Shown in pieces: positions 9,171 to 43,319 of a stretch of DNA of 64,000 nucleotides. Position numbers and translations under genes: made by a program. The notes beneath the pieces were generated by a model, which was not told where the DNA came from, did not search any database, and worked only from the letters and a program-made list of their open reading frames with translations. Every line of letters starts with the position of its first letter. The first letter of the stretch is position 1. Location: the IMG/VR virus record IMGVR_UViG_3300022750_000001, positions 1 through 64,000 of that record. One strand, given 5' to 3'. This stretch comes from a virus.

Positions 9171-9171
9171 T

Positions 9172-9561: not shown

Positions 9562-9562
9562 A

Positions 9563-11053: not shown

Positions 11054-11065
11054 TCTTATAAGATA

Positions 11066-12004: not shown

Positions 12005-12035
12005 TTGTTAATATTATTTATTACTTTTGATACCA

Positions 12036-14446: not shown

Positions 14447-14475
14447 TTTTGTATAAATAAACTGACAAAAGAATC

Positions 14476-14751: not shown

Positions 14752-14757
14752 GATATA

Positions 14758-24946: not shown

Positions 24947-27900
24947 ATGGGAAAACAACACATCTTAGATTTACTAGAGGGAGATAATACTCCCCCTAGT
25001 AATCCTCTTAAGCCAATCTCACAGGCTAATCCTTACGGTTCAAAACAATTTCTTGACTCACAGAAAGTAGGCAGTTCTGTAGCTGAAGCACGTTCAGGCA
25101 AAAAAGCTAAGGACTATATTGCATACATACCCCAAGTAGATATTGATAATCCTAATCTAGATGCTATTAGAGCAACTAACCAAACAGGTGCAGAGCAGTT
25201 TGGTAATAGTCTTGCACAATTTGGTACAGGAGTAGCAGGAGGGTTTATTACTTCTTTAGGAACAAGCTTGGATATTGACCAATCTATAGGGACTATTAAA
25301 GGTGTTCAACAAGAGTTTGGTAATGCTGTAACAGAGTTTGGTAAGACTCTTATGGAGAATGCCAAAGAAGATAATCCCATATATCAAACAGAACAAGGTG
25401 AGGTTAACCCAGGAGATAGTGGATGGTGGGCACAGATGTTTGCTGATACAGGTTTATCAGCAGGTATTATGGCTTACTCTGCATTAGAGACTATAGCTAT
25501 AGGTGCTGCAACAGCAGGTATAGGTGAAGCTGCTGAGGCTGCTTTGATGTCTAAAAGAGTACAAACATTCAAGAATATGTTAGGTGGTATTACCGAATCA
25601 GGTAACCTAGCATCTAAGATGAGAAGAAATGCTACAGCCTTTGGTGTCTTCAATAGACACAATGAGGGTATGATGGAAGCTGCTGATTCATTTGAAACTA
25701 CATATAAAGATTTATTAGATAAGAAAGTTCCTGAGGAACAAGCTAAAGAAGCTGCTGCTAAGGCGGCACAAGATACCTATCTTGGTAATTTACCATTAAT
25801 GGCTTTAGACATACTACAGTTTAGAGCAATGACATTCAACCCTATATCAGGTGGTGCTAATGGTGGTATAGTTGAAAGTGTATTAAGTGGGATTAAGAAT
25901 CCTAAAGTTGCACAAGGTATTGGTCACACTTTTGGTATGCTATCAGAAGGTGGTGAGGAATATTGGCAAGCTTTAGTACAAGATGAATCTAAACACAGTG
26001 CTGATGTATTAGCAGGTAGAGATGATAAATCTAGTTTTGGTGAGAGATTCTCAGAGTTCAATAGAAAAGGTGATACTTGGAATGCAACTATCTCAGGTAT
26101 CTTTGGTGGTGCAATCTTAGGTGGTATATCTCATGGTATAGGTAAAGCTACTGAAAGTAGAAACACTAAAGAATTAAACAAGAATTATGATGACTTCATT
26201 AAATCTTCTACAGGTATTGGAGTAGAAATGGCTGATGACATCAGAGCCGCTGAAGAAACTGGTGATGAGGTTCATGCTAATAATCTAAGAAGAAAGATGG
26301 GTGTTACTAAAGCACTGCAAGCTGTACACTTAGATAATATGAAGGATGATAGTAAAGCCTTTGATTCTTATACTGGTTATTTGAATGATGTTCTTGGTGC
26401 TGTACAATCTAATGATACTGATTTCCTTAAAGAGAATGGTCTTGAAGGTAGTGAAGACTTTATAGCTAGTAATTTCCCTAGCTTTATAGCTGATGCTAGA
26501 GAGATACAATCTATCTATGATACAGTTAAAGTGAATAATGCAAGAGAGGCTGTACCTAATATAGTGTTCAGACAGTATGCTTTAAACAATCTTAATAATG
26601 AGAAGGTTTCTGTTGACCAAAAGATAGGAGACTTACAAGCACAGATGCCTGACTTAAGTAATATCTCAAATCCAGGCAAGGAGATTAATGACTTACAAGT
26701 ATTCCAATCATTAGCCAATTCAAAATTAAAGTTTCTTAATTCTCAACTTAAAAGTGAAAAACTTACTCAAGTTCAGAAAGATGGATTAACTGCACAAGTT
26801 GAAGACCTAAATGCTAGACTTACTGAAGCTGAGGAACAATTAGCTATACAAAAAGAGATAGCTAGTAACTTGTCCCCTAGACAACAGATACTAGATAATG
26901 AAGTTCTTAAGTCTGTTAACCTTAATGCTCAACTTAAAAAGTTAACAGCACAGAAGATTGATATTGAGTCTGAGATTACTAAGACTAGAAAAGAGATGAA
27001 TACTTGGTCTGACCCTGTATTCCAAAAGAAGAATGCACAAGAAAGATTATATCAAGTAATAGAAGATGTAGATAATCTATCTGACTTAAATAACTTTGAG
27101 GCTAGTACTATACAACAAGGTCTAGCTACTGATGATATTAATAGAAGAATACAAGCTAAGAGAAAAGAACTTAATGCTCAAGATGAAGCTACTAGATTAA
27201 AGAATACTCCATCAGTAACAGCTACACCCCAAGCAGGTACAGCACCTATTAATAATATCTTAGGTGCTACAACTGAAGTAGAGGAAGAAGAACAGCCTGC
27301 TGCGGGTACAGGTTTATTTGGTAATGTATTACCTGCTGATGAAGAACCTGCTAATGCACCTGTAGTTAAACCTACAATTAATCCAATTAGGTCTCAGTTA
27401 GGTGCTACTATAGTATCTAATGATGTAGCTGATTTATTTGGTAGTCCTATTGCAGAAACAGACCCTAGGAAGAAAGCTTTATCAGAGTTACCTTATAGTA
27501 TGACTGAGGATGCAGTTATGGTAGATAATATTCCTAGATTGAAATCTGATGTAGATAGAATAAATGCAGAGTTTGATGCTAAGGAAGTAAAACCATTAGA
27601 TAACTCAGAAGTGTCATCTAAGGCTACTGTAGTTGAAGATGAGGGCTTCTCATGGTTTGACCCTTCAGTACTTAATGATAACTTATCAGATGAACAAAAG
27701 GAAAATGTAAGACAGAAAATATCTGACTACTATACTTCTATGGCAGCAGAGTTAGGTAGAAAGCCTAGCTTCAAAGAGTTAGTAGAAGACTTAATGTTAC
27801 ATACATCTCCTGAGCAAGTAGAGAAACAATTTAATGCAATTAGATTAGGATGGGAGTTAAATAACTATGCGAACACTAATTTCAATCAAGTATATAATGA

Positions 27901-30900
27901 ACTCTTTGGCACACGTAAGTCAAAGGCTAAAGACTTCTTTGATTACATCGAAGAAAGTAAAATAACAGAACAAGAACTTAAAGAAGAACAACAAGTTCTT
28001 ACTGAGAAAATAGAACAAGAGCAAGCTGCTCCATTACAAATTGAGGAAACTGAAACAGGTCAGAAAGTTTATAAGCACTTACAACCATTTAAAACTGTCG
28101 AGAGTACTTTAAAGTTCGCTCACCTGTCAGTTCCTTATGAAAGATTCTTTAACGAGAATGAGCAAGGTGAGATTGAGATAGACTACAGATATACTTCTGA
28201 TAGTTTAAACCAAGGTCAGTATGTAGATAGCAAGGAGTTAATGAATCCTAATCTATATCAGCCTGGGACTAAGCTAGATGTTAAAGTACCTACTGAATCA
28301 AATGATATGTTAGTTGCTCAATGGTCTGAGGACTATGAGAAGAGAGACTCTATATCATTTAGTAAGTGGGCTGTAGGTAAAGATAAAAACTCAGATGAGT
28401 ATGTAGGTAAAGTGCCTATGATTATATATAACTCTGAAGGTAAAGGTGTAGCTTTTGTACATGATGTTGATTGGTATAACCCAACCAATGTAGGTTATGG
28501 TGAAAAACCTGGACAGCAAAAACAACTTATTGAGCAATCAAGAAAAGAGTTGTTAGAGTTTAGAAGAGGTGTATTAGAGAATGGTTCTAGTTCAATTACA
28601 GTTACAGAGAAGAGACCTGGGACTATGATTACTATTCCTATGAATCAGCCTACTATAACTGTAGCACAAGCTAACCCTCAAGCATTACTTGGTTATACTA
28701 ACTCTAATGGTAACTTAGTTACTAATGAGGGTATAATTAACTTTGAAGACTTAGTTAATGCTCAAGACTTAAGTATAGGTCATAGATATGATGCTAGACA
28801 AGTAGGTTTAGTTGATGGTAGAAAACAATATGTAGCTTCTAAAGTTATGTATGAATACATAGATGGTGAAGCTAAGTCTAGTATTGTTATGGCTATCAAG
28901 ACTTATATGGCTCAACTAGATACCAAAGAAGAGTTTGCTAAGGCTTCTGAGATTAAAGTTATAAGAGATAGTATCAAAAACCAAACTAATTTAGATTTAT
29001 TTGACCAAGCTGACTTACAAACTTATCTAGGTAACTTCATCCAAGTATTCAATTCAAATGCTAAGACTAACAAAGGTATAGCTGATGATATAAACTCAAG
29101 AGAGGGTGTGCCTGATGGTACTCCATTCTTATCTATATCAGAAGGTAGAGTTGTTATGGGTCTGAAAAATGGTAAGCTTAATCCTAAGGATGAAAGTAAT
29201 GGCTTTGCTTTGTATTTACACCCTCAAAACTTAACTAAGAGTAATAGTGCATTGTTAGCTAACATAGCTGCTACTAACTTAGCTAGAATATTCAGAGGAC
29301 AGAGTATAGGTAATGGTCAGTTTGTTGATGACTACTTAGGTAAGATGAAACAGAACATGACCTCTAAGCAATTAGAAACTAATCCTAATGTAGCTACTAT
29401 TGGTTTAGATAACAAGGTAACTCCTGTTGGAGATTATAGTACATACTTAAAAGGTAAGCTTAAGACTAATGTTAAGTCATTTGATTTAGGTGATGGAAAC
29501 TATGCCACATTTGTACAACCTGTAATTCACTACAGTTATTCGGGTCAATCTACTTCTTTAGGGAACAACATCGAAACTGAGCCTAGTCCTAGGGAAGTTG
29601 CAAAAGAAATTGCAAAGTCTATTACTAAAAACATAGATACAACTGCATCTACTATTGCTGCTATCCAAGCAGATATGGAAAACTTTGAGAACTTAGGTTT
29701 AACTCCTGAGGCTATGCAAGCTTTAAGAGAACTAGGTGGTGCTAAGTTTGACCCTGACTATGCTAAGTTAACTGATGATATAGTACAATCTATTAAAGTT
29801 AAATTAACTAAGGTAGAAGACTTAAATATTGTAGATAGGAATACAGTAGTTCAATTCATTGCTAATGAAGTAATGAATAAGATTGACCCAGTTAAAAGAA
29901 CTACATTAAATAAGAAAGATTTAGAAGCTGACATTAGAAAAACTTTTGGTGATATTATTTCCCCTAAAGTAGCAGTAGTAGATAGACAGCTTGCCAACCT
30001 TAATAAGTTATATGAAACTGGTAACTATCCTGCCCTAAAAGAGGTGATAGACCAATTCAATAACCTAAGAGGCAATGCAGAAGTATTAAAGAAAAACTGG
30101 AATTTCTTAATCAATGAAGCTTTTGAAGACTACATTAGTAAGTTCACTGGTATATCTATTACTATGTCAAGAGACCAAAAGACTGTTGATATAGAGGTTA
30201 AAGATGAAGAGGAGGTAGCTGAGATTAATGAACAAGAAGATGGTCAAGATACTGATGAGGCTATAGTAATAGATGCTGCTGACCAAAGAGAAAAAGACTA
30301 TACTCGTGAATCTGTTGAAGATAACGGTAAACAGTCTGCATCTTACTTACTTAAAAGATTCTTATCTCAAATACCTAACTATGATACTAATGGTAGTACT
30401 AAGAAGGGTTACATGGGATTAACTACATACCCAGGCTTTGATTACTACTATACTCTTATAGGTTCTATCTTATCATCACCTAATCAAGTAGACTCTAACT
30501 TTGATGCAATGATGGATAGATTAGAACAACATGCTGAGACTAAGAGATGGGTTAAAGATGTTGTTGATAAGATGAAAGCTTCTGATGAACAGATGAAGAA
30601 TACTTTCATGTATAACTTTAACAGAGAGACTTTATCTATGAAGTTTGTTATGACCTCATTCAATAAGAAGACAGAGTCTTATAAACTTAAAGTATATGAT
30701 ACTAATGCTAATGAAGTACTAAGAGTTATTCAATCTCAATGGAGAGAGAACTTTAAACAATCACCTTTAGTTATGGTTAATGGTGATAACTATGGTATAA
30801 ATAAGGTAACTGCTCAAGAGATGTTAGACCAATTTAACAACTGGGTTACATCCAAACAACTACCTGCTGAGGTAGAAGCACAAAAATGGTTAGAGAAGTT

Positions 30901-33900
30901 TGGCATCTCTGTAGCTACCGATACTGTTAGTGATTTAATTAAGAATGGTGTATATGTAAATGAAGGTACTAAACCAGTTAAGTTTCCTTATAACAAGATG
31001 TTTACTAAGTCTGCTGATACAGCAGGAGTGTTTGGTGCATTAGCTAGGAAGCTAGAGTTAATGGTAGCGGCTACTGATACAGATTTTGTAGAGAATGATT
31101 CTATTAGTCCATTTGAAAATACAACTGGCTCACTTGGTAAACTTGCCAATATAGAGTCTAAATATTCTTTAAATGTGACCACAAATTCTTTCAGAGATGG
31201 AACAAAATCTATTTATGGATATACTCCATCAAAATTTGCTACAAGCTTCTTAAATCAGCTTAAAACAGATTCCCAAATATTAGAAAATAAAAAGCAAATT
31301 GCTTTCGACCAAAATAGTTATCTGATTGATTTACTTCAATCTGATGAAGACTTTGCAGCTAAGTTTAATATAGACCATTTAGGCATCAATGCTTTTAAAG
31401 AATTAGGTAAGAAGTTATATGCAGATAATGAAATACAAGGTTTAGCTGATGCTGACCATGAGGCTACTAAGTTAGGTATGTTTCAGGATAAGCAACAGGG
31501 TGAAGTTAAATCCAAATCAGTAATAGTAGATGGTATTAAACATGAACTTCCTTTTAGAATGGCACGTATGTTTTTCCCAACTATGTCAGATAAGAAAGCC
31601 ATGCTTAGTATCTCTACTGCTGTATTGGAACTTAAAGCTAAACACCTAGAGTTTGTTGATGGTAGAACTATTATCTCACCTGAGATTAAATCATTCTTGT
31701 CTAGTCAGTTAATCGAGCCTGAGTTAAAAAGAATACTTGCACATCATAAGAGAGCAAAAGAATTAGGTCTTCATCCTAATCAAGTTAATAATCAAAAAGG
31801 TTATAACTTAGGGGCGCAGATATTTACTATGATACCTGCAATGAATAATCTAATGTACACTAAATCTAATGGTGAACAAGAGAGACTTATAGAGTATGTA
31901 GCTAACAATGCACAAGCTATAACTCCTGAGGTATACTCTAATATCTTAGGTGCTATTAGAGAAGATAGTAATCTACTATTAGACAATATGTTTAACCAAC
32001 TTGTAGAAGATAAGTTAGCTGTGTGGGAATCTAATGGTTACTTTACTAAGAATCAAGTTAATCAAATAACAGGAGTTAAGTTCTTAGATAATGCATATCT
32101 TAATAGTAAGCAGGGTACATTAGAAGACAAACTCAGAATAGGTGCATTTGATTATGTTATTAACTCTGCTCTAACTAATGCTAATATGCATATGTTAGTT
32201 GTAGGGGATGTTGCTAACTACTCCCAAGATAAAGCTTTCAAGAATGGTTTTGAGAAAGACTTTGATGGTAATGTATTACCTTACAAGCCTACTAACAATA
32301 GTAGATACTCAACTATTATGTCTGACATCATAGGTGTTAACTTAGGCAAACGCCTAGCTTTACTTATAGCCCCAGGTGCAACTATTGCTCAATCTAAGAA
32401 TGATAGGTATGTGCAGTTGTTTATCAAGGATAGGGTATCAGTATCTAGTAATATAGAATACTTAGTAGAATTATATAATGGTAGAGAAGCTTTAAGAGAT
32501 GCTCAAGCTGATATAGATTTAGCTAAAGCAGGTGATGAAAAAGCTAGAAGAGGTTTGATGAAGAAGTTTCCTCAATTAGATGCTTACTTTGATATTGAAT
32601 CTACAGATGCTCAAGAGTATACTACTACTAAAGAACATTTAGATATTCAGTTTAGACAAGGTAGAATATCTGTAGAGGAATACAATGACTTTACTAAGAG
32701 AATAAACAATCAGAAAGAGTCTGAAAGAAAAGGTCAGATGATTAATGCAGAAGATTACTTATCTGATGCTGAACTTAAGATGATATTCCAACCTATTAAA
32801 CCAGTATATACAGGTCAGATTAATGATGTGACTAATGGTAATAGTAGAATGATGTACATCAAATCATCTTCGTTTCCTTTGATACCTCAATTAACTAAAG
32901 CTTTTCCTGCCCTTGATGGTCTTAGGAGAAAGATGGAAGAAATTGAAACTTTGTATGGTAGAAATGTTAGAGCATCTTATGATACTGCTAATAAGGTTGG
33001 TGCTGTATTAGATAAAAACCAATTAGACATTTGGGATGCTCAAGGTAACTTTAGAGAAGACTCTATTAACCCACAAGATATTGTGGATAAACTTAATAGT
33101 GGAGATGATACTTCAGCCTTAGTATTAGATAGACAATTCTTTAGAATACAACAGGATGTACCATTCAAGTCTACTAAGCATGACCACATTGATAATGTTA
33201 CTGTAGGTACACAGATGATGAAGTTAATGTTTGGTGATGGTGTATCTAATATTACTGAGAAGATATTTACTTTTAATGGTCAGCCTATTAGTGGTAAAGC
33301 ATTACACTCTCATTATAATAAATCATTTGAAGGTTGGATTAACAATGAAAAATCTAAACTATATGAAAGCTTAGGTATAGATGAGTCTACTGGTAAGCCT
33401 GTAGATAAAGTTAAGACTGTACAGAAGTTACAAAACATGCTACAGTTAGAGGCTAAGAAAAGAGGTTTCCCTAAACAAGATATAGAAGCCCTAGAGTTAG
33501 ATATAGACTCTGATGCAACTAATCCTCAGTTCACTATACCTTTGTGGTTGTCTCCTAACAGTAACAGATATGAGGCACTACTAAATGCTATCGTAACTAA
33601 CAGATTATTAAACCTTAAACTGCCAGGAGCATCATTTGTTGCAGGTTCAGAAGAGGGATTTAAGTTTTCTGAAGATATTAACTCTGTAGACCAATCTAAA
33701 GTAATCTTTACTAATGGTTGGGTAGGGGAACTTAAGGGTACTAGGAATGAAGATGGTACTTTCAAGACTGCTCAAGTGTTAATGCCATCTAAGTTCAGAG
33801 ATAGTAATGGTAAACTATTAGACTTATTTAAACAAGAGAATGGTGAGTATGTATATGTAACTCAGAAAGATAATGGTACATATATGTTAAATCAGAATAT

Positions 33901-36900
33901 GATTGATAGTGAATTACTAAGTAATCCTTCCTTCCGTATTCCAACATCTTCACATGTGTCTCTATCTCAAATAGAAATAGTAGGTATACTACCAACAGAG
34001 GTTGGAGATTTAATGATAGTACCTAAGAACTTTACCAAACAAAAAGGTCTTGACTTTGATGTGGATAAAGAGAACATGTATATGTTACACCATATTGTTG
34101 ATTCTAATGGTAAATTAATTAGACTAGAGGATAACGAAGATGGTATCACCGTTGATAATATAGATGAAGCCGTAACTGAATTACAAGAGTTAATTGAATT
34201 ACAGAGACCTATTATTGAACAAAATGCTGATATTAAGAAACAAATCAGAGAGTATGAGAATGAAATAGCTGTATTAGAAGAGATGGATTTCCCATCTAAG
34301 GATGCTAAGAGATTTATTAAACAACTTAAAGAAGAGGTTAACTATAATGTAACTGCTAAAGACTTTAAGGATATGGTTAAGTTACTTAAGGATTATAAAG
34401 ACCTTAAGACTCAACTATATCAGAATGAGATTATCAAAGCATACTCTTCTGTATTATCATCAAGTGATGATAGAATACAAAGAAAGATTAATAAAGTACT
34501 ATCTACAGACTTTGCTGAAGAGCAAGCTAACTTAATTAGTGGTCTTACTAATCTTGAGGTTGATAGCTCTAACTTCACTATCTTATCTGATGAGTATCAG
34601 AAACAAAAGATGGGACTAGGTGCAGCAGGTAAATTAGGTATTGGAGTTTACTCTAATGCAGTTGTATTACATTCATTAATACAACAATCTACTGGTATCA
34701 GTTTAATGGAAAAAGTAGAAGTTGAAACACCTGATGGACCTAAATCTATATGGCAACCATATACTTTGAACTTAGGTGGTATTATATCTAATGGTAAACT
34801 AGGTAGAGAAGAAACTTTAGATGGAGATAGACGTTTAACTGATGTACTTGCTGAGAGACAAAATACTGCAACAGATAATGAGAAGTTACAGATTATGGGT
34901 AAGGCTCACATCAATGAGTTAACTATTAATGTTGACACCATTCTTTCACTCTTAGGGTATGATAAAAGTAAAGAAGCTGTTAATATTAACGGCATTAATA
35001 CTAAGATGTCTATTCCTTACTTACTATTATCTCAACCAATTATTAAAGATTGGGTTGCTTTAACCCGTAATACTAAATCTAATTTAGCAGGGTATAATCC
35101 TAATGCAGCTTCAGAGGTAGAAGCTAAGTTATGGGAGAAGTATAATTTCAAAGAGTTAAACAAAGAATTTGAAAACTATGATGAGAATTTAGTTACACTT
35201 ATCTCAGAACTAACTGCACAGAAACTAGTAGATAATATACTTGAGAATGGTAATGACTCTGAGTCACAGTTTGCTGTCTTAGAATTATTTAAACAATTAC
35301 AAGCTTATGGAGAAGACATCACAGGTCTACAATCTAAATTGAATATACAACGTTCAGGTCTAGGTAAATCCACTTATGAGATGTTATCTAAGTATGATAA
35401 TGTTAAATCATTAGCTTATAATCCTAGGATTAGTAATATAGCAAACTTAGTAGGTGAGTATTTAATCAATGATGATTATAACCCTGATGACAGACAACAA
35501 TTAGTTGAAGAGGGTTATACTATATTTGATGATGATAAATTCTCAGCACCATTTGCAGTTAAGCCTAATACAGTTACAGGTAGTCTTGTAGTACAAGCTG
35601 CTAAATCAGGTTATGAATTATGGAATGATTACTTCCCACATAACAATGGTAGCTTGAAACAAGTTATGACTGAGATTATGGAGACTATGTCTAGTGAGGA
35701 GTTAAGTGAATCTAAGAAACTTAAAACTCAACATGAAGTATTTGCTGAGTTAAAGAAATACTTATACTCATCAGGTCAACTAGGTATCTTTAAAGGTAAT
35801 CCTCAAGCAGAGAGATTTAGATTATTCTTTGATAAAGAGGGTAATCAATCTTTGGCTAGTTACTTATCAGCTTTCTTAAGGTCAGACCATGCTAATAAAG
35901 ACTTTCTAACTAATAATAAATTAATTAGTGGTTTCACTTTTGGTTTAGAGCAAGGTAAGTTACCATCTTTAGTTAAATATAACAATGCTAGAGGTGAGGA
36001 CTTTAATGAAGAGTATAAGTACTTAGCTTTAGTTGAGTTAATGGATAAGAACTTACCAATAGCTGACTATAACGGTCAACCCTATACTACTAGAATGTTA
36101 GCTAAAGATTTAATTACTTATAGCTTTATCCAAGGTGGAGTACAAGAAGCTATTGAGTTTGTTAAATATATACCAGTAGCTTATCTTAAACAGATGGGGT
36201 TTGCTGATGTAACTCAAGCTTGGCAGAAGTCAGCTATAGGTCAATTCAGAGTTGATATATGGCATCAAATGTTAGGAGTTAAGTCAGAAGACTCACCTAT
36301 ACCAACTCCATCAAGATTTGTTGCTCAATACTTCCAAAACAATCCTGCTAAGTTACCTAAGTTGACTACAGAGGATATGGATAGTAATAGCTTAATTTAT
36401 GGTAAGGAAAAAACTTTAGAAGACCTTCAATCATTTAAGATTAAAGACCCTAAAGACATTAGACCTATGGTAGCTATATATAATACTAAAGTACCTAAAG
36501 GTTTCTCTAAGTTACAGATATATACTTGGAATGGTAAACAGTATAATAGAACAGCTAACTTAGGTGTGTTTGGTATGGCTGAGTATTCAGTTAGAGATAA
36601 TAATGTTGAGCCATTAATTGATGCTAAGTATGTAGTACCAACTGATGTTGCACCTGCTATACAGAATAATCCTATTCCGTTAGGGCAAAGTGACGTATTT
36701 GATTTAGCTAAGGGTAGTCTTACTAATAGTTTAGGTATGATGGTAGACAATGCTGACCATTACTATCCTGGGATTTCAGAGGTAGCTAAAGCATTAACTC
36801 CTTATATAAACAATAACACTAAACTCGAAATAGGTATAGTTAATGGTGGAAAATCAAGAGGTGTTTTCTTAGGGAACACAATCACTATAGATAAGGGCTA

Positions 36901-37570
36901 CCTTTCAAATCCTAAGGTTTCTAATGAAATGGTGGCTAGGACATTGTTGCATGAAACTACCCATTCGTTAGTGTCACCAGTGCTTAATGAGTATTTCAAC
37001 TCTAATGGTTCTATCATTAAGCCGTTGTCCCCTAACGTAGAGAGATTATCCCGACTCTTCTCTGAAGTTCAGACTAAGCTTGGACCTCAACTAGAAGAGT
37101 TTAAACAATGGTATGCTACTAACCCAGGTACAGTTAGAACCGAAGCTGATAGAATACTATATGCAGGTATGGATATACATGAGTTTACTACCATGATTAT
37201 GTCAGAACCTGCACTGCAAAAACTATTAGCTGATACACCTAGCAGTACAGCAGGTAAGAGTTTACTACAACAGTTTGTAGATACTTTGAAAAGAGTATTA
37301 TCAGAGTTAGGTTTAAACTTTAAAGAAGATAGTATTACAGCACAAGCTATGGATGCAGTCTTCTCAATTATTCAAGATGAAGTTCAAAAACCTGCCGTAA
37401 CTACAAATCCTTTTAGTAATTTTGGAATAATGGAATCATCTGAGGATGAAAATCTTGGCAAATTACTAGATGATGAAGATGCTAAAGATAACTCAAAAGA
37501 TGAAACAGGGTTCTTAGACCCTAACACTATAGACAATAGTGAAGTAACAGAGGAAGATTGTATATTCTAA
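24947..37570 (+). CDS. giant virion-associated protein with two-barrel (DPBB) RNA polymerase core and C-terminal HExxH zincin motif
   Basis: Uninterrupted 4207-aa ORF. aa ~2885-3050 match the beta-prime/Rpb1 catalytic barrel: LKLPGASFVAGSE, AQVLMPSKF, FRIPTSSHVSLSQIEIVGILP and GLDFDVDKENMYMLHH. D3036, D3038 and D3040 map to nt 34052-34066. HETTH lies at aa 4002-4006 (nt 36950-36964). Gly-zipper-like hydrophobic stretches occur near the N-terminus. Confidence 0.65.
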   Translation: MGKQHILDLLEGDNTPPSNPLKPISQANPYGSKQFLDSQKVGSSVAEARSGKKAKDYIAYIPQVDIDNPNLDAIRATNQTGAEQFGNSLAQFGTGVAGGFITSLGTSLDIDQSIGTIKGVQQEFGNAVTEFGKTLMENAKEDNPIYQTEQGEVNPGDSGWWAQMFADTGLSAGIMAYSALETIAIGAATAGIGEAAEAALMSKRVQTFKNMLGGITESGNLASKMRRNATAFGVFNRHNEGMMEAADSFETTYKDLLDKKVPEEQAKEAAAKAAQDTYLGNLPLMALDILQFRAMTFNPISGGANGGIVESVLSGIKNPKVAQGIGHTFGMLSEGGEEYWQALVQDESKHSADVLAGRDDKSSFGERFSEFNRKGDTWNATISGIFGGAILGGISHGIGKATESRNTKELNKNYDDFIKSSTGIGVEMADDIRAAEETGDEVHANNLRRKMGVTKALQAVHLDNMKDDSKAFDSYTGYLNDVLGAVQSNDTDFLKENGLEGSEDFIASNFPSFIADAREIQSIYDTVKVNNAREAVPNIVFRQYALNNLNNEKVSVDQKIGDLQAQMPDLSNISNPGKEINDLQVFQSLANSKLKFLNSQLKSEKLTQVQKDGLTAQVEDLNARLTEAEEQLAIQKEIASNLSPRQQILDNEVLKSVNLNAQLKKLTAQKIDIESEITKTRKEMNTWSDPVFQKKNAQERLYQVIEDVDNLSDLNNFEASTIQQGLATDDINRRIQAKRKELNAQDEATRLKNTPSVTATPQAGTAPINNILGATTEVEEEEQPAAGTGLFGNVLPADEEPANAPVVKPTINPIRSQLGATIVSNDVADLFGSPIAETDPRKKALSELPYSMTEDAVMVDNIPRLKSDVDRINAEFDAKEVKPLDNSEVSSKATVVEDEGFSWFDPSVLNDNLSDEQKENVRQKISDYYTSMAAELGRKPSFKELVEDLMLHTSPEQVEKQFNAIRLGWELNNYANTNFNQVYNELFGTRKSKAKDFFDYIEESKITEQELKEEQQVLTEKIEQEQAAPLQIEETETGQKVYKHLQPFKTVESTLKFAHLSVPYERFFNENEQGEIEIDYRYTSDSLNQGQYVDSKELMNPNLYQPGTKLDVKVPTESNDMLVAQWSEDYEKRDSISFSKWAVGKDKNSDEYVGKVPMIIYNSEGKGVAFVHDVDWYNPTNVGYGEKPGQQKQLIEQSRKELLEFRRGVLENGSSSITVTEKRPGTMITIPMNQPTITVAQANPQALLGYTNSNGNLVTNEGIINFEDLVNAQDLSIGHRYDARQVGLVDGRKQYVASKVMYEYIDGEAKSSIVMAIKTYMAQLDTKEEFAKASEIKVIRDSIKNQTNLDLFDQADLQTYLGNFIQVFNSNAKTNKGIADDINSREGVPDGTPFLSISEGRVVMGLKNGKLNPKDESNGFALYLHPQNLTKSNSALLANIAATNLARIFRGQSIGNGQFVDDYLGKMKQNMTSKQLETNPNVATIGLDNKVTPVGDYSTYLKGKLKTNVKSFDLGDGNYATFVQPVIHYSYSGQSTSLGNNIETEPSPREVAKEIAKSITKNIDTTASTIAAIQADMENFENLGLTPEAMQALRELGGAKFDPDYAKLTDDIVQSIKVKLTKVEDLNIVDRNTVVQFIANEVMNKIDPVKRTTLNKKDLEADIRKTFGDIISPKVAVVDRQLANLNKLYETGNYPALKEVIDQFNNLRGNAEVLKKNWNFLINEAFEDYISKFTGISITMSRDQKTVDIEVKDEEEVAEINEQEDGQDTDEAIVIDAADQREKDYTRESVEDNGKQSASYLLKRFLSQIPNYDTNGSTKKGYMGLTTYPGFDYYYTLIGSILSSPNQVDSNFDAMMDRLEQHAETKRWVKDVVDKMKASDEQMKNTFMYNFNRETLSMKFVMTSFNKKTESYKLKVYDTNANEVLRVIQSQWRENFKQSPLVMVNGDNYGINKVTAQEMLDQFNNWVTSKQLPAEVEAQKWLEKFGISVATDTVSDLIKNGVYVNEGTKPVKFPYNKMFTKSADTAGVFGALARKLELMVAATDTDFVENDSISPFENTTGSLGKLANIESKYSLNVTTNSFRDGTKSIYGYTPSKFATSFLNQLKTDSQILENKKQIAFDQNSYLIDLLQSDEDFAAKFNIDHLGINAFKELGKKLYADNEIQGLADADHEATKLGMFQDKQQGEVKSKSVIVDGIKHELPFRMARMFFPTMSDKKAMLSISTAVLELKAKHLEFVDGRTIISPEIKSFLSSQLIEPELKRILAHHKRAKELGLHPNQVNNQKGYNLGAQIFTMIPAMNNLMYTKSNGEQERLIEYVANNAQAITPEVYSNILGAIREDSNLLLDNMFNQLVEDKLAVWESNGYFTKNQVNQITGVKFLDNAYLNSKQGTLEDKLRIGAFDYVINSALTNANMHMLVVGDVANYSQDKAFKNGFEKDFDGNVLPYKPTNNSRYSTIMSDIIGVNLGKRLALLIAPGATIAQSKNDRYVQLFIKDRVSVSSNIEYLVELYNGREALRDAQADIDLAKAGDEKARRGLMKKFPQLDAYFDIESTDAQEYTTTKEHLDIQFRQGRISVEEYNDFTKRINNQKESERKGQMINAEDYLSDAELKMIFQPIKPVYTGQINDVTNGNSRMMYIKSSSFPLIPQLTKAFPALDGLRRKMEEIETLYGRNVRASYDTANKVGAVLDKNQLDIWDAQGNFREDSINPQDIVDKLNSGDDTSALVLDRQFFRIQQDVPFKSTKHDHIDNVTVGTQMMKLMFGDGVSNITEKIFTFNGQPISGKALHSHYNKSFEGWINNEKSKLYESLGIDESTGKPVDKVKTVQKLQNMLQLEAKKRGFPKQDIEALELDIDSDATNPQFTIPLWLSPNSNRYEALLNAIVTNRLLNLKLPGASFVAGSEEGFKFSEDINSVDQSKVIFTNGWVGELKGTRNEDGTFKTAQVLMPSKFRDSNGKLLDLFKQENGEYVYVTQKDNGTYMLNQNMIDSELLSNPSFRIPTSSHVSLSQIEIVGILPTEVGDLMIVPKNFTKQKGLDFDVDKENMYMLHHIVDSNGKLIRLEDNEDGITVDNIDEAVTELQELIELQRPIIEQNADIKKQIREYENEIAVLEEMDFPSKDAKRFIKQLKEEVNYNVTAKDFKDMVKLLKDYKDLKTQLYQNEIIKAYSSVLSSSDDRIQRKINKVLSTDFAEEQANLISGLTNLEVDSSNFTILSDEYQKQKMGLGAAGKLGIGVYSNAVVLHSLIQQSTGISLMEKVEVETPDGPKSIWQPYTLNLGGIISNGKLGREETLDGDRRLTDVLAERQNTATDNEKLQIMGKAHINELTINVDTILSLLGYDKSKEAVNINGINTKMSIPYLLLSQPIIKDWVALTRNTKSNLAGYNPNAASEVEAKLWEKYNFKELNKEFENYDENLVTLISELTAQKLVDNILENGNDSESQFAVLELFKQLQAYGEDITGLQSKLNIQRSGLGKSTYEMLSKYDNVKSLAYNPRISNIANLVGEYLINDDYNPDDRQQLVEEGYTIFDDDKFSAPFAVKPNTVTGSLVVQAAKSGYELWNDYFPHNNGSLKQVMTEIMETMSSEELSESKKLKTQHEVFAELKKYLYSSGQLGIFKGNPQAERFRLFFDKEGNQSLASYLSAFLRSDHANKDFLTNNKLISGFTFGLEQGKLPSLVKYNNARGEDFNEEYKYLALVELMDKNLPIADYNGQPYTTRMLAKDLITYSFIQGGVQEAIEFVKYIPVAYLKQMGFADVTQAWQKSAIGQFRVDIWHQMLGVKSEDSPIPTPSRFVAQYFQNNPAKLPKLTTEDMDSNSLIYGKEKTLEDLQSFKIKDPKDIRPMVAIYNTKVPKGFSKLQIYTWNGKQYNRTANLGVFGMAEYSVRDNNVEPLIDAKYVVPTDVAPAIQNNPIPLGQSDVFDLAKGSLTNSLGMMVDNADHYYPGISEVAKALTPYINNNTKLEIGIVNGGKSRGVFLGNTITIDKGYLSNPKVSNEMVARTLLHETTHSLVSPVLNEYFNSNGSIIKPLSPNVERLSRLFSEVQTKLGPQLEEFKQWYATNPGTVRTEADRILYAGMDIHEFTTMIMSEPALQKLLADTPSSTAGKSLLQQFVDTLKRVLSELGLNFKEDSITAQAMDAVFSIIQDEVQKPAVTTNPFSNFGIMESSEDENLGKLLDDEDAKDNSKDETGFLDPNTIDNSEVTEEDCIF

Positions 37571-37580: not shown

Positions 37581-40500
37581 ATGGCTAAGAGTTGTGGTAA
37601 TATTACCAATAACTTTGCAAAAACAAATGCAAAGAATGAATTAGTTAAAGTAGGGGCTATTGATGTATATAATAATATACTAGATGAGTCTCTACTTAGA
37701 CAACAACAAAAAAGGTTTAGAGACCATGCTATTAATAAGTATGGATTCAGGGCAGACTTTATTGTTCAAGATGATGCTAACTTTAGTAAGATAGTATTCA
37801 ACGTGGCAGCATTTAAAGCTGTTGATGTACTTAACAATAAAGATACTGTAGCACTAATTGATAATAAAACTCAAAGCTATATAACTCAAGCTAGACTTAA
37901 TCAGCAACCAAGGTTTGAACCTGCATTTGATTCTATGTTTGATGCAAGTACAGCCCCTGCTGATAGAAGTGTGCCTACTCAAGGTTTAACTAGAATGGTT
38001 ACTCTTAAGGAGTCCTTATTATCTAGGGCAAAGAGAAGACAAGTTATAGTTAGTACTGAACTAAGGAATAGTAAGGATAATGTAGCTGACTATAATAGAT
38101 TATTTGCATTAAAACAAACTTTAGATACTAGGATAGCTAGCTTAGAGGATGAGATAATCCAACTTAATAGGATAGATACTAGAGCGCCTGAGATTATAGC
38201 ACCATATATAGTTGGTGAACTAGATAGGCTTGCAGAGTTAACTAAATCTATTGACCCTGCTGACATCAAAGAAGCTAAGGATATTATCAAGTTCATTAGA
38301 GATATAGCTGAGTTTGATGCTCAGATTATAGAACAGAATCCATTAGGACATCCTCTATATCTTAAGGGTGAATTATATGATGCTGAGGGTAACTTCTTAT
38401 TAACTGATGCTATGATACAGCCTTATAAAGATTGGGCTGAGATTGCTAAGCAGTATAATGATAAGTTAGCTATACAAGAGGTAAGACTTATAGAGAATAC
38501 ATTCAATGCCAATCAGAAGATACAACAGATGTTTGGCAAACAGTTTACCTACTCTGATATTATAGGTCAAGGTCTTAAGGATGCTTCATGGATTGACTCT
38601 ATGGTTATGGATATAGCAGCAGGTATTACATCTCAAAATGGATTACTTGCACAAGTTATAAAAAATACTGTAGATAATAACTTTGAAAAACACTTTGCTT
38701 GGGCCAAAGAGATAGAAGAAAAGATTAATAATCTAACACCACAAGCTTCTGAAGAACTTAAAAAAATGGGGTATAGCCTCAATGGACTAGGTATATTAGG
38801 GGTGAATGGTGTTAGTTATGATTTGTTTAAACAGATTATACCTAATACTAATAATCAATCTAGTGGTAATATAGTACACAAGTACTCATACAAGTGGTTT
38901 GAGAATAGGTCTGAGATGAGTAACTTCTTTCAGAAACAGATGGATAACATACATGTACTATATGCTAATGCAGATGATAGAAGAAATGCTTATCAAAATG
39001 CTATAGCTAATAGAAATAACTGGTATGCTAAGAATACTAAGTCTTTAGACCCATCATTATTATCTAGTATAATCAATGACCCTGAGTTTGCAAGCTTATT
39101 AGAAAACTTCAGTACAGATACAGCAGCTATAGAAGCACATGAGAATGAACTTAAAGCTATAGTTGGTGAAGACCACTTGAATAAGGTAGTAGATGCTCAG
39201 AAGATTAAGTTAAGGCAATACTTATCTCAAAAGGAGATTGTACTACAAGATTTATTTGCTGAGGATGCCGTAACAGATGTGGCTAATCTTACTGCCTTAG
39301 GGAAAAGAAAGCTAGATATATGGGAAGCAGAACATAATCCTTTCTTAGGTATTACTTATAGAACATCAGGTCAACCTTTCTTTGTAGGTACTTATGCCTA
39401 TCATTCTAAGTTTGAGTTCAATGAGTATGTACCTAATAAAGCTGATTACTATGATGCCAACTATGCTAAAATAGAAGCTAACCCTAAACTTAAGGAGTTC
39501 TATGATGCAGTGTATGAGGCTACATCAGGTATGAAACAAAGGTTTTCTTTTGATGTTCAACAGAAAATATCGGCTACTTCTATACCTTTCTTACAGAAAA
39601 GTATTATTGAGATATTAACTGATAAAGACTTGACTTTTCATCAGGCTATATCTAAGATATTCAGAGAGATTATTGATAAGATACAGAGTATGTTTACTAT
39701 CAATAAAGAAGACCAATTCTCTTATGCTAAGACTGACCCTAATACAGGTATACCTAACTATCAAGTTAGTGACCAATTTATTAGTCAGAACTTAGATAAG
39801 ATTAATGAGAAGTTCTTTATTAATAGTGTAATAGTATCAGGTCAAATAGGTCTTAAGAAGATTACTAGATTTACAGGTCTTAATCAGGCTAAGATGGACG
39901 ATGGTTTCATAGCCGAGTTCACTCAACAGTATCTAGGTAGAAGACTAACAAGAGAAGACCTAGTAAAAGAGTTTGGTCAGGTTATACCATTAGGTAAGAT
40001 TATATATAGAAATGCTCAACATGAGATAGCTAAAGAAAAATCATTTGATTTACCTAAAGTTATTAAGTTATACTCACACCTAGCAGCCCAGTATTCAGCT
40101 AGACAAGAGATGTTACCTCTTGTTGAGATGATGAAGCAGAACTATCAGCAGATTAAAGATGAGAAGACTAATAATATTGGTGAAGCTATCTTAAACTATA
40201 CAGGTTTAAATAAAGAAACTGGTAACAAAGATGGTGCTAAAAGATTAGGTGGACTAAGAGATAACGCTAACAAACAAGTGGAAAATTGGTTTGAGAGAGT
40301 TGTGCTTGGTAATTTTGGTCTTAGGAAACAGTATGGTGTTATTAAGGGTACTAAGTATGTTGACCAAAAATATCTTACTACTAAAGAAAGAGAGACTAAG
40401 TCTCAAGCAGAGGATGCTATAGAAGCCTTAGTTGGTAGAGATGAAAATGGTAAACTTAACTCTCCCGCAGGATTAAGTGAAGAGTCTTTAGCTAAGTACA

Positions 40501-42266
40501 AAAGACTTCAGAAGATTATTGATGACTTAGGTTCAGAGAGGGCAGCTTCAGCAGCAGTTGATAGTATACTTAATTTCATTAGATTTAAAGGTCTTGGGTT
40601 TAACATCTCATCAGGTATCAATAACTTTATCGAAGGTCAGATAGCTAACTCTATTACTGCATCTTCAGGTAACTATTTCTCCCCTGAATTTATACATACA
40701 GTATCTCCATCAGATATGATTGCAGGTGACTTGATTAAACAAGCTACTCCACAATTAGTACCTGAGGCTGTAGCTAAAGCTGAGTTCTTAGCTTCTGCTT
40801 CTGATGTATTACAGGATAATACCAATGAGTTACAGAAAGCTTCAACTAAAACTGCATTCTCTGCCCTAAGGAGATTGAATCCTTACTATATGACTGCTAA
40901 AGGTGAGCAGTATAATCAGATACCTCTTATGGTTGCCACTCTAAAAGCCGAACCTATTACTGCAATAGATGGTACTGTTTCAAATGTGTGGGATGCCCTA
41001 GAAGGAGAATATTTGCCTGACTCAAAACAATGGACTGTCAAAGTAAGAGAAGCTTTCAGAACCGAGGAAAACATCAAAGGATGGGAAAATTATGATGCCG
41101 ATAACTACTTCAACTGGAAATCTAAGATTAAATCTGTAATTGCCAATACACATGGTGACTTTTCTAATACAGGTGGTATGATGGCTAAGTCTTTCCAAGC
41201 AGGACAAGCAGCTATGATGTTTAAGACTTGGTTACCTAGAGAGTTCTATAAGAGATTTGCAGTGGAGCAAGATGATATTACTACAGGACTTAAAGGTTTC
41301 AAAGGTAGATGGAGAAGTCAGACAGCAACTACCGCAGCTATTACTGGTGGTATCATGGGTAGTTACTTTATGGGTCCAATAGGAGGTATAGCAGCAGCAT
41401 CTGTAGGTGTAGTATTAGGTAGAATGTATGGTGCTAACTCTAACTTAACTTTAGTACAAGAGTTAGCTTTAGTTAACAAGATGTTATTTAAGAAAATGAT
41501 AGGTATGCCTATTAATGTCTTAGGTAGTTTGATAGGTAGAAAACAAGTTATCAATACTCAAATATCAAACGATAGATATAAGAGTATGGGTAGTGCTACC
41601 TTTACACAACAAGACTTTAATAACTTTAGGGCTAATCTACAAGAGATGTCTATAATGCTATCATTCTTTGCTATGTTACTACTAACAAAAGCATTCCTAT
41701 GGGATGATGATGATGAGACTGAAGACCCTAGAAGAATGGCACACAACTTGTTAGCTAATAGATTTATGTCATTAGCAGGGTCAGGTATGATGTATGCTAA
41801 TGCAACTGACTTACAGAAGAATCTTAATCTACCCTTATTCAAGTTCTTAGGAGATGTAGGTAAGGTAGTAGCAGATGCATCACAAGCTATAGCAGGTAAT
41901 GATATATTAATGTCAGGTTCTAATGCAGGTGAATCTAGGACTATGAATCAGATGCAGAAAACTTTCTTACCTGGGATATTTCAAAACCCTCTTACAGGTG
42001 GATTTGCACCCCAAATGGAAAGACAATTTGTACCATCAGAATATGATAGTTATTTCTTTGGTGAGGAGAAAAGTGCTAAGAATGAGATTAAGAGAGATAA
42101 AGCCTCAAGAAAGCAAGAACTCATTGATGCAGGAGAACTTACAGATGATGAAATCAAGAAGATTATTAATAAGGAATACCCAAGAAGGGCTAAAGGTCAG
42201 ACCTATACTGAACTACTGGAACAGATAGAGGCAACTGAGAAAGAGGATGATGAAGTAGAGCAATAG
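37581..42266 (+). CDS. large internal/ejection-type virion protein with C-terminal membrane segments
   Basis: 1561 aa. Glycine-zipper segment AITGGIMGSYFMGPIGGIAAASVGVVLG (nt ~41320-41430) and a TM helix MSIMLSFFAMLLLTKAFLW (nt ~41647-41703). It is the last gene of the late arm. Confidence 0.45.
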   Translation: MAKSCGNITNNFAKTNAKNELVKVGAIDVYNNILDESLLRQQQKRFRDHAINKYGFRADFIVQDDANFSKIVFNVAAFKAVDVLNNKDTVALIDNKTQSYITQARLNQQPRFEPAFDSMFDASTAPADRSVPTQGLTRMVTLKESLLSRAKRRQVIVSTELRNSKDNVADYNRLFALKQTLDTRIASLEDEIIQLNRIDTRAPEIIAPYIVGELDRLAELTKSIDPADIKEAKDIIKFIRDIAEFDAQIIEQNPLGHPLYLKGELYDAEGNFLLTDAMIQPYKDWAEIAKQYNDKLAIQEVRLIENTFNANQKIQQMFGKQFTYSDIIGQGLKDASWIDSMVMDIAAGITSQNGLLAQVIKNTVDNNFEKHFAWAKEIEEKINNLTPQASEELKKMGYSLNGLGILGVNGVSYDLFKQIIPNTNNQSSGNIVHKYSYKWFENRSEMSNFFQKQMDNIHVLYANADDRRNAYQNAIANRNNWYAKNTKSLDPSLLSSIINDPEFASLLENFSTDTAAIEAHENELKAIVGEDHLNKVVDAQKIKLRQYLSQKEIVLQDLFAEDAVTDVANLTALGKRKLDIWEAEHNPFLGITYRTSGQPFFVGTYAYHSKFEFNEYVPNKADYYDANYAKIEANPKLKEFYDAVYEATSGMKQRFSFDVQQKISATSIPFLQKSIIEILTDKDLTFHQAISKIFREIIDKIQSMFTINKEDQFSYAKTDPNTGIPNYQVSDQFISQNLDKINEKFFINSVIVSGQIGLKKITRFTGLNQAKMDDGFIAEFTQQYLGRRLTREDLVKEFGQVIPLGKIIYRNAQHEIAKEKSFDLPKVIKLYSHLAAQYSARQEMLPLVEMMKQNYQQIKDEKTNNIGEAILNYTGLNKETGNKDGAKRLGGLRDNANKQVENWFERVVLGNFGLRKQYGVIKGTKYVDQKYLTTKERETKSQAEDAIEALVGRDENGKLNSPAGLSEESLAKYKRLQKIIDDLGSERAASAAVDSILNFIRFKGLGFNISSGINNFIEGQIANSITASSGNYFSPEFIHTVSPSDMIAGDLIKQATPQLVPEAVAKAEFLASASDVLQDNTNELQKASTKTAFSALRRLNPYYMTAKGEQYNQIPLMVATLKAEPITAIDGTVSNVWDALEGEYLPDSKQWTVKVREAFRTEENIKGWENYDADNYFNWKSKIKSVIANTHGDFSNTGGMMAKSFQAGQAAMMFKTWLPREFYKRFAVEQDDITTGLKGFKGRWRSQTATTAAITGGIMGSYFMGPIGGIAAASVGVVLGRMYGANSNLTLVQELALVNKMLFKKMIGMPINVLGSLIGRKQVINTQISNDRYKSMGSATFTQQDFNNFRANLQEMSIMLSFFAMLLLTKAFLWDDDDETEDPRRMAHNLLANRFMSLAGSGMMYANATDLQKNLNLPLFKFLGDVGKVVADASQAIAGNDILMSGSNAGESRTMNQMQKTFLPGIFQNPLTGGFAPQMERQFVPSEYDSYFFGEEKSAKNEIKRDKASRKQELIDAGELTDDEIKKIINKEYPRRAKGQTYTELLEQIEATEKEDDEVEQ

Positions 42267-42291
42267 TACCTCTTGGTAAGAGAAATTTTTT

Positions 42292-42326
42292 AGAAAGCCT
42301 GAGGTTTAATCAGGCTTTCTATTTTA
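42292..42326 (+). terminator. terminator hairpin at the convergence point of the two arms
   Basis: 11-bp perfect stem AGAAAGCCTGA (42292-42302) / TCAGGCTTTCT (42310-42320) followed by ATTTTA. It lies 25 nt after the + strand stop and 4 nt from the stop of the last minus-strand gene. The T-tract is present only for the + strand. Confidence 0.6.
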
Positions 42327-42665
42327 GTTTAATTCTCTTACTTTGTTAAACAATTTCCTTATCTGTATCTCTTGTTGTACATCTGAGATATAACCTGAAT
42401 CAAGTATATACTCTAATGTCTTCTCAATTTCTACATTAAGGGTTAAATCTAAATCAACATCAACCCAATCTTCTCTAATAGAGTCATAGTTGTTATTGAT
42501 TTCACCATCATTAAAAGCCTTGATGAATAGTGGTAAGGTTAATACTTTACCATATTGTTTAGCTAAAGGTATAAACTCATCATTAGGTAGGACATTAATA
42601 TCTTTACCTACTGGAAATCTATCATTGGGTAATACGTATATCACCAACTCTTGTTGCTTATTCAT
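42324..42665 (-). CDS. hypothetical protein
   Basis: 113-aa ATG ORF. Short internal repeat VLPNDRFP / VLPNDEFI. Acidic C-terminal half. Confidence 0.55.
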   Translation of the reverse strand: MNKQQELVIYVLPNDRFPVGKDINVLPNDEFIPLAKQYGKVLTLPLFIKAFNDGEINNNYDSIREDWVDVDLDLTLNVEIEKTLEYILDSGYISDVQQEIQIRKLFNKVRELN

Positions 42666-42798
42666 CGTCTTTATCGTTTCTATGAAAGTAAGTTTTCTTC
42701 TTCCTACAGTATTTAGAGTATGCTACTAAAGCTATTAAAAATAGAATAGAAGCTATACTTACATAATCATCTGTAGGACACATGTAAGTATAGTCCAT
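42658..42798 (-). CDS. small single-pass membrane protein (below the ORF-track cutoff)
   Basis: Hand translation of the only sizeable gap gives MDYTYMCPTDDYVSIASILFLIALVAYSKYCRKKKTYFHRNDKDDE (46 aa). ATG is at 42798-42796. Its stop overlaps the next ATG by 8 nt. One hydrophobic helix is followed by a basic stretch. Confidence 0.4.
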   Translation of the reverse strand: MDYTYMCPTDDYVSIASILFLIALVAYSKYCRKKKTYFHRNDKDDE

Positions 42799-42804
42799 TG
42801 TGTC

Positions 42805-43318: not shown

Positions 43319-43319
43319 A

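Follow-up and report, generated by a model that had tools for sequence, protein, structure and literature searches.

A giant virion-block protein of an IMG/VR virus carries a predicted crAss-type two-barrel RNA polymerase fused to counterparts of its usual neighbours

The DNA analysed here (the window) comprises positions 1-64,000 of IMG/VR virus record IMGVR_UViG_3300022750_000001. On its plus strand, a giant open reading frame (ORF; 24947-37570) starts with an ATG codon and encodes 4207 amino acids (aa). From the ORF list, the translation, and comparison with PHROG 16227 and gp32 of Flavobacterium psychrophilum phage FpV4, the product is predicted to be a fusion of a module resembling gp67 of Cellulophaga phage phi14:2, an RNA polymerase (RNAP) resembling phi14:2 gp66, and a zincin-like domain of the gp65 type. 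The only family to which the protein was assigned by PHROGs is 16227, 'virion structural protein'. An earlier note, made from the sequence of the window, had proposed that a stretch of this protein is the beta-prime-like double-psi beta-barrel of a virion RNAP, with a DFDVD metal-binding motif, and had quoted four peptides in its support. All four are present in the translation: LKLPGASFVAGSE at aa 2889-2901, TAQVLMPSKF at aa 2940-2949, FRIPTSSHVSLSQIEIVGILP at aa 2996-3016, and GLDFDVDKENMYMLHH at aa 3034-3049. The motif (aa 3036-3040, with D3036, D3038 and D3040) was also placed correctly, since codons gac ttt gat gtg gat are found exactly at nt 34052-34066 of the plus strand; it is preceded by R-x-P-T.

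To estimate how often such motifs arise by chance, the 4207-aa sequence was shuffled 20,000 times. By itself, DxDxD is uninformative in a protein of this size, as the earlier note had cautioned: 1.3 are expected per shuffle, and two are observed (DIDSD at 2852 and DFDVD at 3036). DFDxD turns up in 5.3% of shuffles. The claim that the flanking context goes beyond chance holds as well, for R-x-P-[ST] followed after a gap of 28-48 residues by D[FY]DxD was obtained in 0.025% of shuffles, and the pattern occurs once across all six reading frames of the window. The evidence from homology, presented below, is far stronger than these motif statistics.

The crAss-type polymerase family was predicted in 2018 and characterised in structure and function in 2020-21; RNA synthesis by gp66 is Mg-dependent and rifampicin-resistant. 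A tblastn search of GenBank phages with aa 2501-3300 returned as best matches the FpV4-group phages of F. psychrophilum (ca. 40% identity), in which the protein is annotated as structural. Many crAss-like phages ranked next, among them phi14:2 (g066, 'Catalytic RNA polymerase subunit') and crAss002 ('putative RNAP catalytic subunit'). In BLASTP, aa 2258-3337 aligned with gp66 722-1639 over ca. 1100 residues (E 2e-18), and a second segment, aa 1788-1941, aligned with gp66 223-389. A family profile hidden Markov model, built like the other profiles used here from IMG/VR relatives, matched gp66 at 340 bits over residues 432-2095. Within the BLASTP alignment, GLDFDVDK falls on GSDFDIDK of gp66 (1361-DFDID-1365), FRIPTSSHVSLSQIEIVGILPTEVGD on YRIPNQGQSSNDPLQIVGILPEAMGD, and FRIPTSS...IVGILP on YRIPNQG...IVGILP. 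Each of the three gp66 aspartates is essential for RNA synthesis, and the fourth motif position is I or V, not G, in all crAss-like polymerases (bioRxiv 10.1101/2020.03.07.982082); the valine of the window protein fits this rule. The kinship with gp66 that the earlier note had put forward is thus borne out by the BLASTP and profile scores and by the alignment of DFDVD on an essential motif.

With BLASTP, the family profile and, for the boundaries, a stand-alone copy described below, the polymerase module equivalent to gp66 was delimited to aa 1578-3781 (29678-36289; all features of the giant ORF are on the plus strand). Core strands of the first, beta-like barrel lie at aa 2608-2650 (32768-32896), in a segment corresponding to gp66 1003-1035 that contains K2618 and K2639 (QPIKPV ... 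YIKSSSFPLIPQ); they were recognised by conservation and by strands at residues 378-406 of the structural model. The second, beta-prime-like barrel occupies aa 2885-3050 (33599-34096), the stretch flagged earlier, and corresponds to gp66 ca. 1225-1375. The bridge helix and trigger loop of gp66, as defined in bioRxiv 10.1101/2020.03.07.982082 (1529-1559 and 1598-1636), are colinear with aa 3213-3247 and 3296-3337, respectively. The bridge-helix equivalent (34583-34687) coincides with a long helix of the model (residues 976-1008), and the trigger-loop equivalent (34832-34957) was placed solely by its alignment with gp66 1598-1639.

Conservation of these elements was followed in two sets of relatives. 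A database search found 37 homologues, 19 of which cover the catalytic site; D[FY]D[IV]DK is present in all 19, with the R-x-P element retained. A scan of IMG/VR revealed 191 related viral contigs, from which 80 loci were kept for the counts given here; 79 of them contain D[FY]D[IV]D, and its fourth position is always I or V. The three aspartates, whose conservation the earlier note had named as a check on its proposal, are therefore kept in both sets. Among the homologues, the first-barrel sequence QPxKPV ... Y[IV]K[ST]S[ST]FPL is nearly invariant, K2639 being invariant and K2618 present in at least 90% of them.

An AlphaFold2 model of aa 2240-3400, built on the 37-sequence alignment, had a mean pLDDT (predicted local distance difference test) of 83.2 and a pTM (predicted template modelling score) of 0.80. 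When the model was compared with the PDB by Foldseek, the best match was phi14:2 gp66 (6vr4_A; E 1.2e-30, probability 1.00, TMq 0.60, 1225 columns), followed by QDE-1 (7y7p_B; E 4.6e-3, probability 0.95, TM ca. 0.2), in line with the relation to QDE-1-type polymerases that had been suggested. Lower ranks held non-significant local matches (55-73 residues at 2-3.4 A, E > 1) to largest-subunit barrels of Pol II, III and IV, to bacterial RNAP subunits including beta-prime, and to the non-virion RNAPs of phiKZ and AR9. Strands of the second barrel are predicted at model residues 652-662, 703-708, 753-758, 768-776 and 802-806. The four peptides of the earlier note map to predicted strands (652-662, 703-708 and 753-776) and to the loop before strand 802-806, a placement that fits a double-psi barrel. 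A structure prediction of the kind that note had called for thus agrees with a beta-prime-like barrel bearing a DFDVD metal site. The residue correspondence to E. coli beta-prime and Rpb1 that it had drawn is supported only through gp66 and the weak local Foldseek matches, not by direct residue-level superposition. Against BFVD, Foldseek gave 54 matches at E <= 1e-3, essentially all from crAss-like or uncultured phages and some of them unnamed. In BFVD, several of the crAss-like giant proteins with the polymerase fold are named in UniProt after an accessory domain fused to it, as 'DNA helicase', 'NTF2 domain-containing' or 'ART-PolyVal-like domain-containing', so that the polymerase is widely mis-named or un-named in public records.

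Features of the gp66 family are found together at this locus: two double-psi barrels in one polypeptide (by the AlphaFold2 model and its match to 6vr4_A), a DFDxD motif with I or V at position 4 that is conserved in orthologues, sequence homology throughout the catalytic region, with the bridge helix and trigger loop included, and a gene located after the muzzle and cargo genes and flanked by gp67-like and gp65-like sequences, both partly fused into the polymerase ORF. We conclude that the flagged stretch is very probably the second, beta-prime-like double-psi beta-barrel of a crAss-type two-barrel DNA-dependent RNAP, an orthologue of gp66, with its Mg site at D3036, D3038 and D3040.

Several points weigh against this conclusion. 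Function is transferred in its entirety from phi14:2, at ca. 22% identity; packaging, ejection and catalysis are predictions for the window phage. General searches with the whole protein were empty: Pfam gave a single spurious, mucin-like match (E 0.11), the Pfam RNA_pol_Rpb1 models of the cellular largest subunit gave none at E <= 1, and phmmer gave none among PDB sequences. Recognition consequently relies on pairwise BLAST, profiles and the predicted fold, by which alone the kinship with gp66 becomes visible. The window covers 64 kb of a genome of probably ca. 90 kb, and a second polymerase could lie outside it. Finally, the mature product may be cleaved rather than remain one chain.

The N-terminal extension (aa 1-1577; 24947-29677) resembles phi14:2 gp67, a virion protein. 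A profile of this region, made from 32 sequences, matched gp67 130-836 at 44.5 bits, and reversed or shuffled controls scored at most 1.5 bits. The match was found by this profile only, as BLASTP of the giant protein or of the muzzle ORF against gp67 gave none; the extension had no PDB or Pfam match. A hydropathy scan located two Gly/Ala-rich, mildly hydrophobic segments in it, at aa 169-201 and 380-398. With gp67 itself as query, tblastn detected no orthologues in other crAss-like phages; its matches were confined to other Cellulophaga phages and to short segments covering 4-8% of the query. Downstream of the giant ORF, a 1561-aa ORF (37581-42266, plus strand) corresponds by homology to the rest of phi14:2 gp65 ('RNA polymerase associated protein'), its profile matching gp65 at 71.6 bits, mainly at residues 975-1238 and 1264-1403. 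Shuffled and reversed sequences scored ca. 5 bits or less against the profiles used for the fusion, and neither the N-terminal nor the downstream-ORF profile matched anything significant in the PDB. In most of the 80 IMG/VR loci, too, the giant ORF is followed by an ORF of this kind.

Judged by sequence, then, the giant protein would consist of a gp67-like module, a gp66-like polymerase and the zincin-like domain of gp65, with the rest of gp65 encoded by the next gene. Fusion of the gp65, gp66 and gp67 counterparts into one huge polyprotein has been described in some phages, and gp65 orthologues are known to contain a zincin-like domain (bioRxiv 10.1101/2020.03.07.982082), so the fusion as such is already known from the literature. 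The earlier note had remarked that the protein is roughly twice the size of gp66. The figure stands (4207 versus 2180 aa); it does not reflect a novel enzyme design, because the double size results from fusion of the polymerase with its two usual neighbours, the normal layout in this clade. In the IMG/VR loci the fused layout is the rule, with ORFs of ca. 4000-6500 aa and the motif 2900-3600 aa from the start; in 47 of the 80, an HExxH lies 850-1090 aa past the motif.

Other arrangements of the cassette were also encountered. On a 303-kb contig of a metagenome-assembled genome (MAG) labelled Flammeovirgaceae bacterium (CBDATB010000010.1, 8226-14530; our loci L003/L084), a stand-alone copy of the polymerase module consists of a 516-aa ORF (39% identity to aa 1578-2099) and a 1509-aa ORF (43% to aa 2208-3781); these two ORFs, the latter being P0001 of L003, supplied the boundaries of the module used above. 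The copy is devoid of the N-terminal extension, the zincin domain and phage structural genes, and its neighbours are cellular genes (PFOR, FKBP, ABC permease, MutS2, dihydroorotase and aconitase) together with a T5orf172-domain gene. Possible origins of the copy are a phage remnant, a domesticated gene and, at 6x coverage, a chimeric assembly. On ENA ERZ19532935 scaffold_772 (2790-20671; L088), the cassette is divided among seven genes. Two of these genes, with a ferritin-like gene between them, encode the barrels separately: one product, of 1199 aa, contains barrel 1 (equivalent to window aa 1793-2813), and the other, of 710 aa, contains barrel 2 and its DFDVD (window aa 2811-3441). The zincin-like domain is fused there to a PIF1-type helicase. 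The break falls at ca. aa 2812, in the connector between the barrels. By its sequence, this locus would encode a natural two-subunit version of the enzyme, and covalent linkage of the barrels would therefore not be needed for function, which says nothing on cleavage in the window protein. On a 233-kb contig of a MAG labelled Bacteroidetes bacterium (JACPEA010000007.1, 1439-18061; L086), the N-terminal module is a separate 1751-aa ORF, and the polymerase, zincin domain and gp65-like protein are joined in one ORF of 3735 aa. This series of fusions and fissions marks module boundaries (ca. aa 1577, 2812, 3442 and 3781) that are useful for the design of expression constructs.

The C-terminal part of the giant protein (ca. 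aa 3875-4175; 36569-37471) was recognised as a zincin-like (SprT-like) domain by HETTH at aa 4002-4006 (nt 36950-36964), by E4079 (nt 37181-37183), and by a profile, A2, that matched gp65 126-386 at 47 bits (controls at most 5). H4002, E4003, H4006 and E4079, the last being a Glu 73 residues downstream of HExxH, are invariant in 37 sequences; these were drawn from the IMG/VR loci, a homologue search with the C-terminal 568 aa having found none. Pfam SprT-like matches 19 of the 37 relatives, and the window's own sequence falls below every Pfam peptidase threshold. Among PDB sequences, A2 matched an 'internal virion protein' (9sfn_G, 2.8e-8), the virion RNA polymerase (vRNAP) of phage N4 (11fw_A, 6e-6) and gp48, an ejection protein of phage PhiM1 in the T7-gp16 class (8vb2_A, 2e-5), and weakly Spartan/SprT and projannalysin (E 0.04-0.1). 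The AlphaFold2 model of the domain had a pLDDT of 62, and Foldseek with this model gave nothing significant, the zinc peptidases among the weak top matches being suggestive only. The protease fold is accordingly putative, supported by sequence signatures only.

When compared with full-length N4 gp50, A2 matched aa 2157-2328, with HExxH at 2228, at 27.4 bits versus at most 3.8 for 50 shuffles. This region is the C1 subdomain, which in N4 vRNAP directly follows the polymerase domain (PMC13434306). The HExxH...E domain of the window protein is therefore homologous to N4 C1, as to PhiM1 gp48 and PDB 9sfn_G, a link that is not stated in the N4 or PhiM1 literature searched. Homology and colinearity of the whole N4 chain with the giant protein were also considered and are unsupported: the N-terminal, polymerase-core and downstream-ORF profiles did not match N4 gp50, and the HExxH domain alone is common to both. 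We tentatively suggest, as an idea with rather less than even chances, that an older ejection-protein scaffold of podoviruses underlies the virion polymerases of both the crAss type and the N4 type, having taken up two unrelated polymerases on independent occasions. If this is true, the clade's layout of N-terminal module, polymerase and HExxH domain is the direct counterpart of N4 gp50. The relationship of crassvirus RNAP-associated proteins to N4 domains is listed as open in the 2026 N4 structure paper (PMC13434306), and the HExxH homology with N4 vRNAP bears on how giant polymerases are ejected.

The HExxH domain also enters into the most serious of the rival explanations, a minority view in our estimate though a realistic one: the giant protein may be a polyprotein from which a gp67-like protein, a ca. 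2200-aa polymerase and a zincin-like fragment are released, after translation or during assembly, by cuts that its own HExxH domain perhaps makes. The working enzyme would then be of gp66 size, so that what is contested is the single giant chain, not the polymerase assignment. Consistent with cutting, the three modules are separate genes in phi14:2 and are split further in L088, further patterns of fusion are seen in L086 and among the 2400-6500-aa ORFs of IMG/VR, and a conserved metalloprotease signature, HExxH...E, is part of the same chain; both cleavage and a zincin role in activation have been proposed (bioRxiv 10.1101/2020.03.07.982082). No cleavage site was identified, however, and N4 vRNAP functions as an uncleaved chain of 3500 aa despite its homologous HExxH subdomain (PMC13434306). 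The failure of the window sequence to reach any Pfam peptidase threshold and of the C-terminal model to find a significant fold match also speaks against this reading. Thus, what remains of the single-chain two-barrel polymerase proposed in the earlier note is the presence of both barrels in one ORF; the mature protein may not be a single chain, given the possible cleavage and the split barrels of L088.

The other rivals question the polymerase itself and are far less probable. That the polymerase-like module has lost its catalytic activity and persists only in a structural or ejection role might be suspected from the annotation of the nearest cultured relatives (structural protein only) and from the absence of a known enzymatic domain over most of the chain. 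Yet relatives with 29-47% overall identity retain the three aspartates, the two lysines of the first barrel and the RxP element, a pattern that implies purifying selection on the active site, and the model superposes on an active enzyme; we consider such a relic very unlikely. Hardly more credible, and if anything slightly less so, is an enzyme that acts mainly as an RNA-dependent RNA polymerase (RdRP), not as a transcriptase of phage DNA. QDE-1, the second-best structural match, does have both activities (PMC9508822), but its match is far weaker than that of gp66 (E 4.6e-3 at TM ca. 0.2 versus E ca. 1e-30), no Pfam RdRP match was obtained, and gp66 transcribes DNA and drives early phage transcription (bioRxiv 10.1101/2020.03.07.982082). 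A mere chance resemblance to beta-prime in a very long protein, for which the 1.3 expected occurrences of bare DxDxD could be cited, was given a negligible probability and is refuted by the rarity of the combined pattern among shuffles and by homology to gp66 at the sequence, profile and fold levels. A DNA-dependent polymerase of the gp66 type thus remains the preferred reading.

The surroundings of the giant ORF agree with the claim that the gene sits among internal or ejected-type virion proteins. The ejection/cargo block starts with a crassvirus muzzle protein of 1589 aa (15702-20471, plus strand; Pfam PF25731 crAss_MUZ, E 4.3e-60). Next come two plus-strand ORFs of 694 and 780 aa (20471-24897), which by position only are candidates for crassvirus cargo proteins C1 and C2 (PhiCrAss001 gp45 and gp46; PMC10172136); the 694-aa ORF belongs to PHROG 15413, and the 780-aa ORF had no family match. 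The order of muzzle, two mid-sized ORFs, giant ORF and 1561-aa ORF is that of phi14:2 g070-g069-g068-g067-g066-g065, and gp65-67 of phi14:2 have been detected in virions by tandem mass spectrometry. TerL, major capsid protein and portal were not identified in the window. As had been noted earlier, no other RNAP is seen: none was matched among the 35 of 36 ORFs of at least 150 aa that were scanned against Pfam or PHROGs.

The minus strand carries, at 42324-63979, a nucleotide-metabolism and replication block recognised with Pfam and PHROG (MazG-like, ThyA, dNMP kinase, exonuclease, UDG, primase, AAA ATPase and DnaB). By analogy with phi14:2, these are the presumed early genes that the virion polymerase would read. 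In phi14:2, no common motif was found upstream of gp66-dependent transcripts (bioRxiv 10.1101/2020.03.07.982082). The plus-strand virion/ejection block and the minus-strand block converge at 42266-42324, with 57 bp (42267-42323) between stop codons, and a run of small minus-strand ORFs (42324-43580) lies next to this point. The thymidylate synthase ORF (45768-46850, minus strand) has 360 aa and aligns to ca. 280 positions of the PHROG 160 profile, which indicates an insertion of roughly 80 aa. An exonuclease-family ORF (12446-13216, plus strand; PHROG 298, E 3e-28) lies within the structural gene block and is reminiscent of nuclease genes that are reported to typify crAss-like phages. Scans of the window for tRNA genes and Rfam families found nothing.

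By analogy with phi14:2 and PhiCrAss001, the following course of infection may be envisaged. The giant protein would be a product of the middle or late phase, its gene being transcribed by the host polymerase; it would enter the capsid as cargo and be extruded, partly unfolded, through the tail, ahead of the DNA or together with it. In the cell, the polymerase would refold and transcribe the minus-strand replication and nucleotide-metabolism genes without the host enzyme; this transcription would therefore be expected to resist rifampicin. The host polymerase would read the middle and late genes, the giant ORF itself among them. Ejection, envelope penetration or activation are the probable roles of the N-terminal module and the zincin-like domain, activation possibly through cutting of the fusion into its parts.

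The window protein is a new, rather distant member of a known enzyme family in the standard fused architecture of its clade, and will not surprise a specialist; knowledge of the enzyme class itself is unchanged. What is gained is a functional name for the 4207-aa gene, for the ca. 4300-aa 'virion structural protein' of the FpV4 group of fish-pathogen phages, and for at least 191 environmental viral contigs. By extension, all of these would carry the virion RNAP with which infection begins, independently of the host enzyme. Fusion of the polymerase to both partner proteins is the usual state in this large lineage, which probably lies outside Crassvirales proper; in relatives the cassette is divided among as many as seven genes, the barrels being on separate polypeptides.

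Among known systems, phi14:2 gp66 shares with the window protein two double-psi barrels in one chain, the aligned DFD[IV]D, the conserved first-barrel lysines, the colinear bridge helix and trigger loop, and a gene position after the muzzle and cargo genes. It differs in sequence (ca. 22% identity) and in length (2180 versus 4207 aa), the window protein having the gp67-like module of 1577 aa fused N-terminally and the gp65-type zincin-like domain C-terminally. Unlike phi14:2, the window phage, judged by its nearest cultured relatives, probably belongs to a lineage outside the order Crassvirales of the International Committee on Taxonomy of Viruses. These relatives, FpV4, Fpv1-3 and FPSV (F. 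psychrophilum phages, genus Fipvunavirus), are classified outside Crassvirales; the Fpv3 group branches just outside the crAss-like groups in a TerL tree (PMC7886860), and Fpv3 is listed among crAss-like relatives (PMC10136315). They share the fused architecture, the gene neighbourhood and PHROG 16227 with the window, and their public records name the protein only 'virion structural protein'. FpV4 gp32 (4287 aa) is colinear with window aa 905-4145 at 31% identity, and ca. 40% in the polymerase core; the first 900 aa of the window protein are not alignable with it by BLAST. The window phage is of a different species or genus: the sole match at the DNA level is a 44-nt stretch, and no close DNA relative was found among GenBank phages.

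At a greater distance, Neurospora QDE-1 and the eukaryotic RNAi polymerases, as well as cellular RNAP beta and beta-prime, have in common with the window protein the two-barrel core and the DxDxD metal site. The window protein belongs to none of their Pfam families, has V in place of the universal glycine at motif position 4, and contains in its polymerase module ca. 1600 residues without counterpart in QDE-1 or cellular RNAP. The 3500-aa virion RNAP of N4 (gp50, Schitoviridae) is likewise giant and ejected, with an N-terminal module, a polymerase and an HExxH subdomain in this order, and its HExxH subdomain (aa 2157-2328, C1 of the C-terminal domain) is homologous in sequence to the C-terminal domain of the window protein; its polymerase core, in contrast, is of the T7-like single-subunit type, unrelated to the two-barrel fold.

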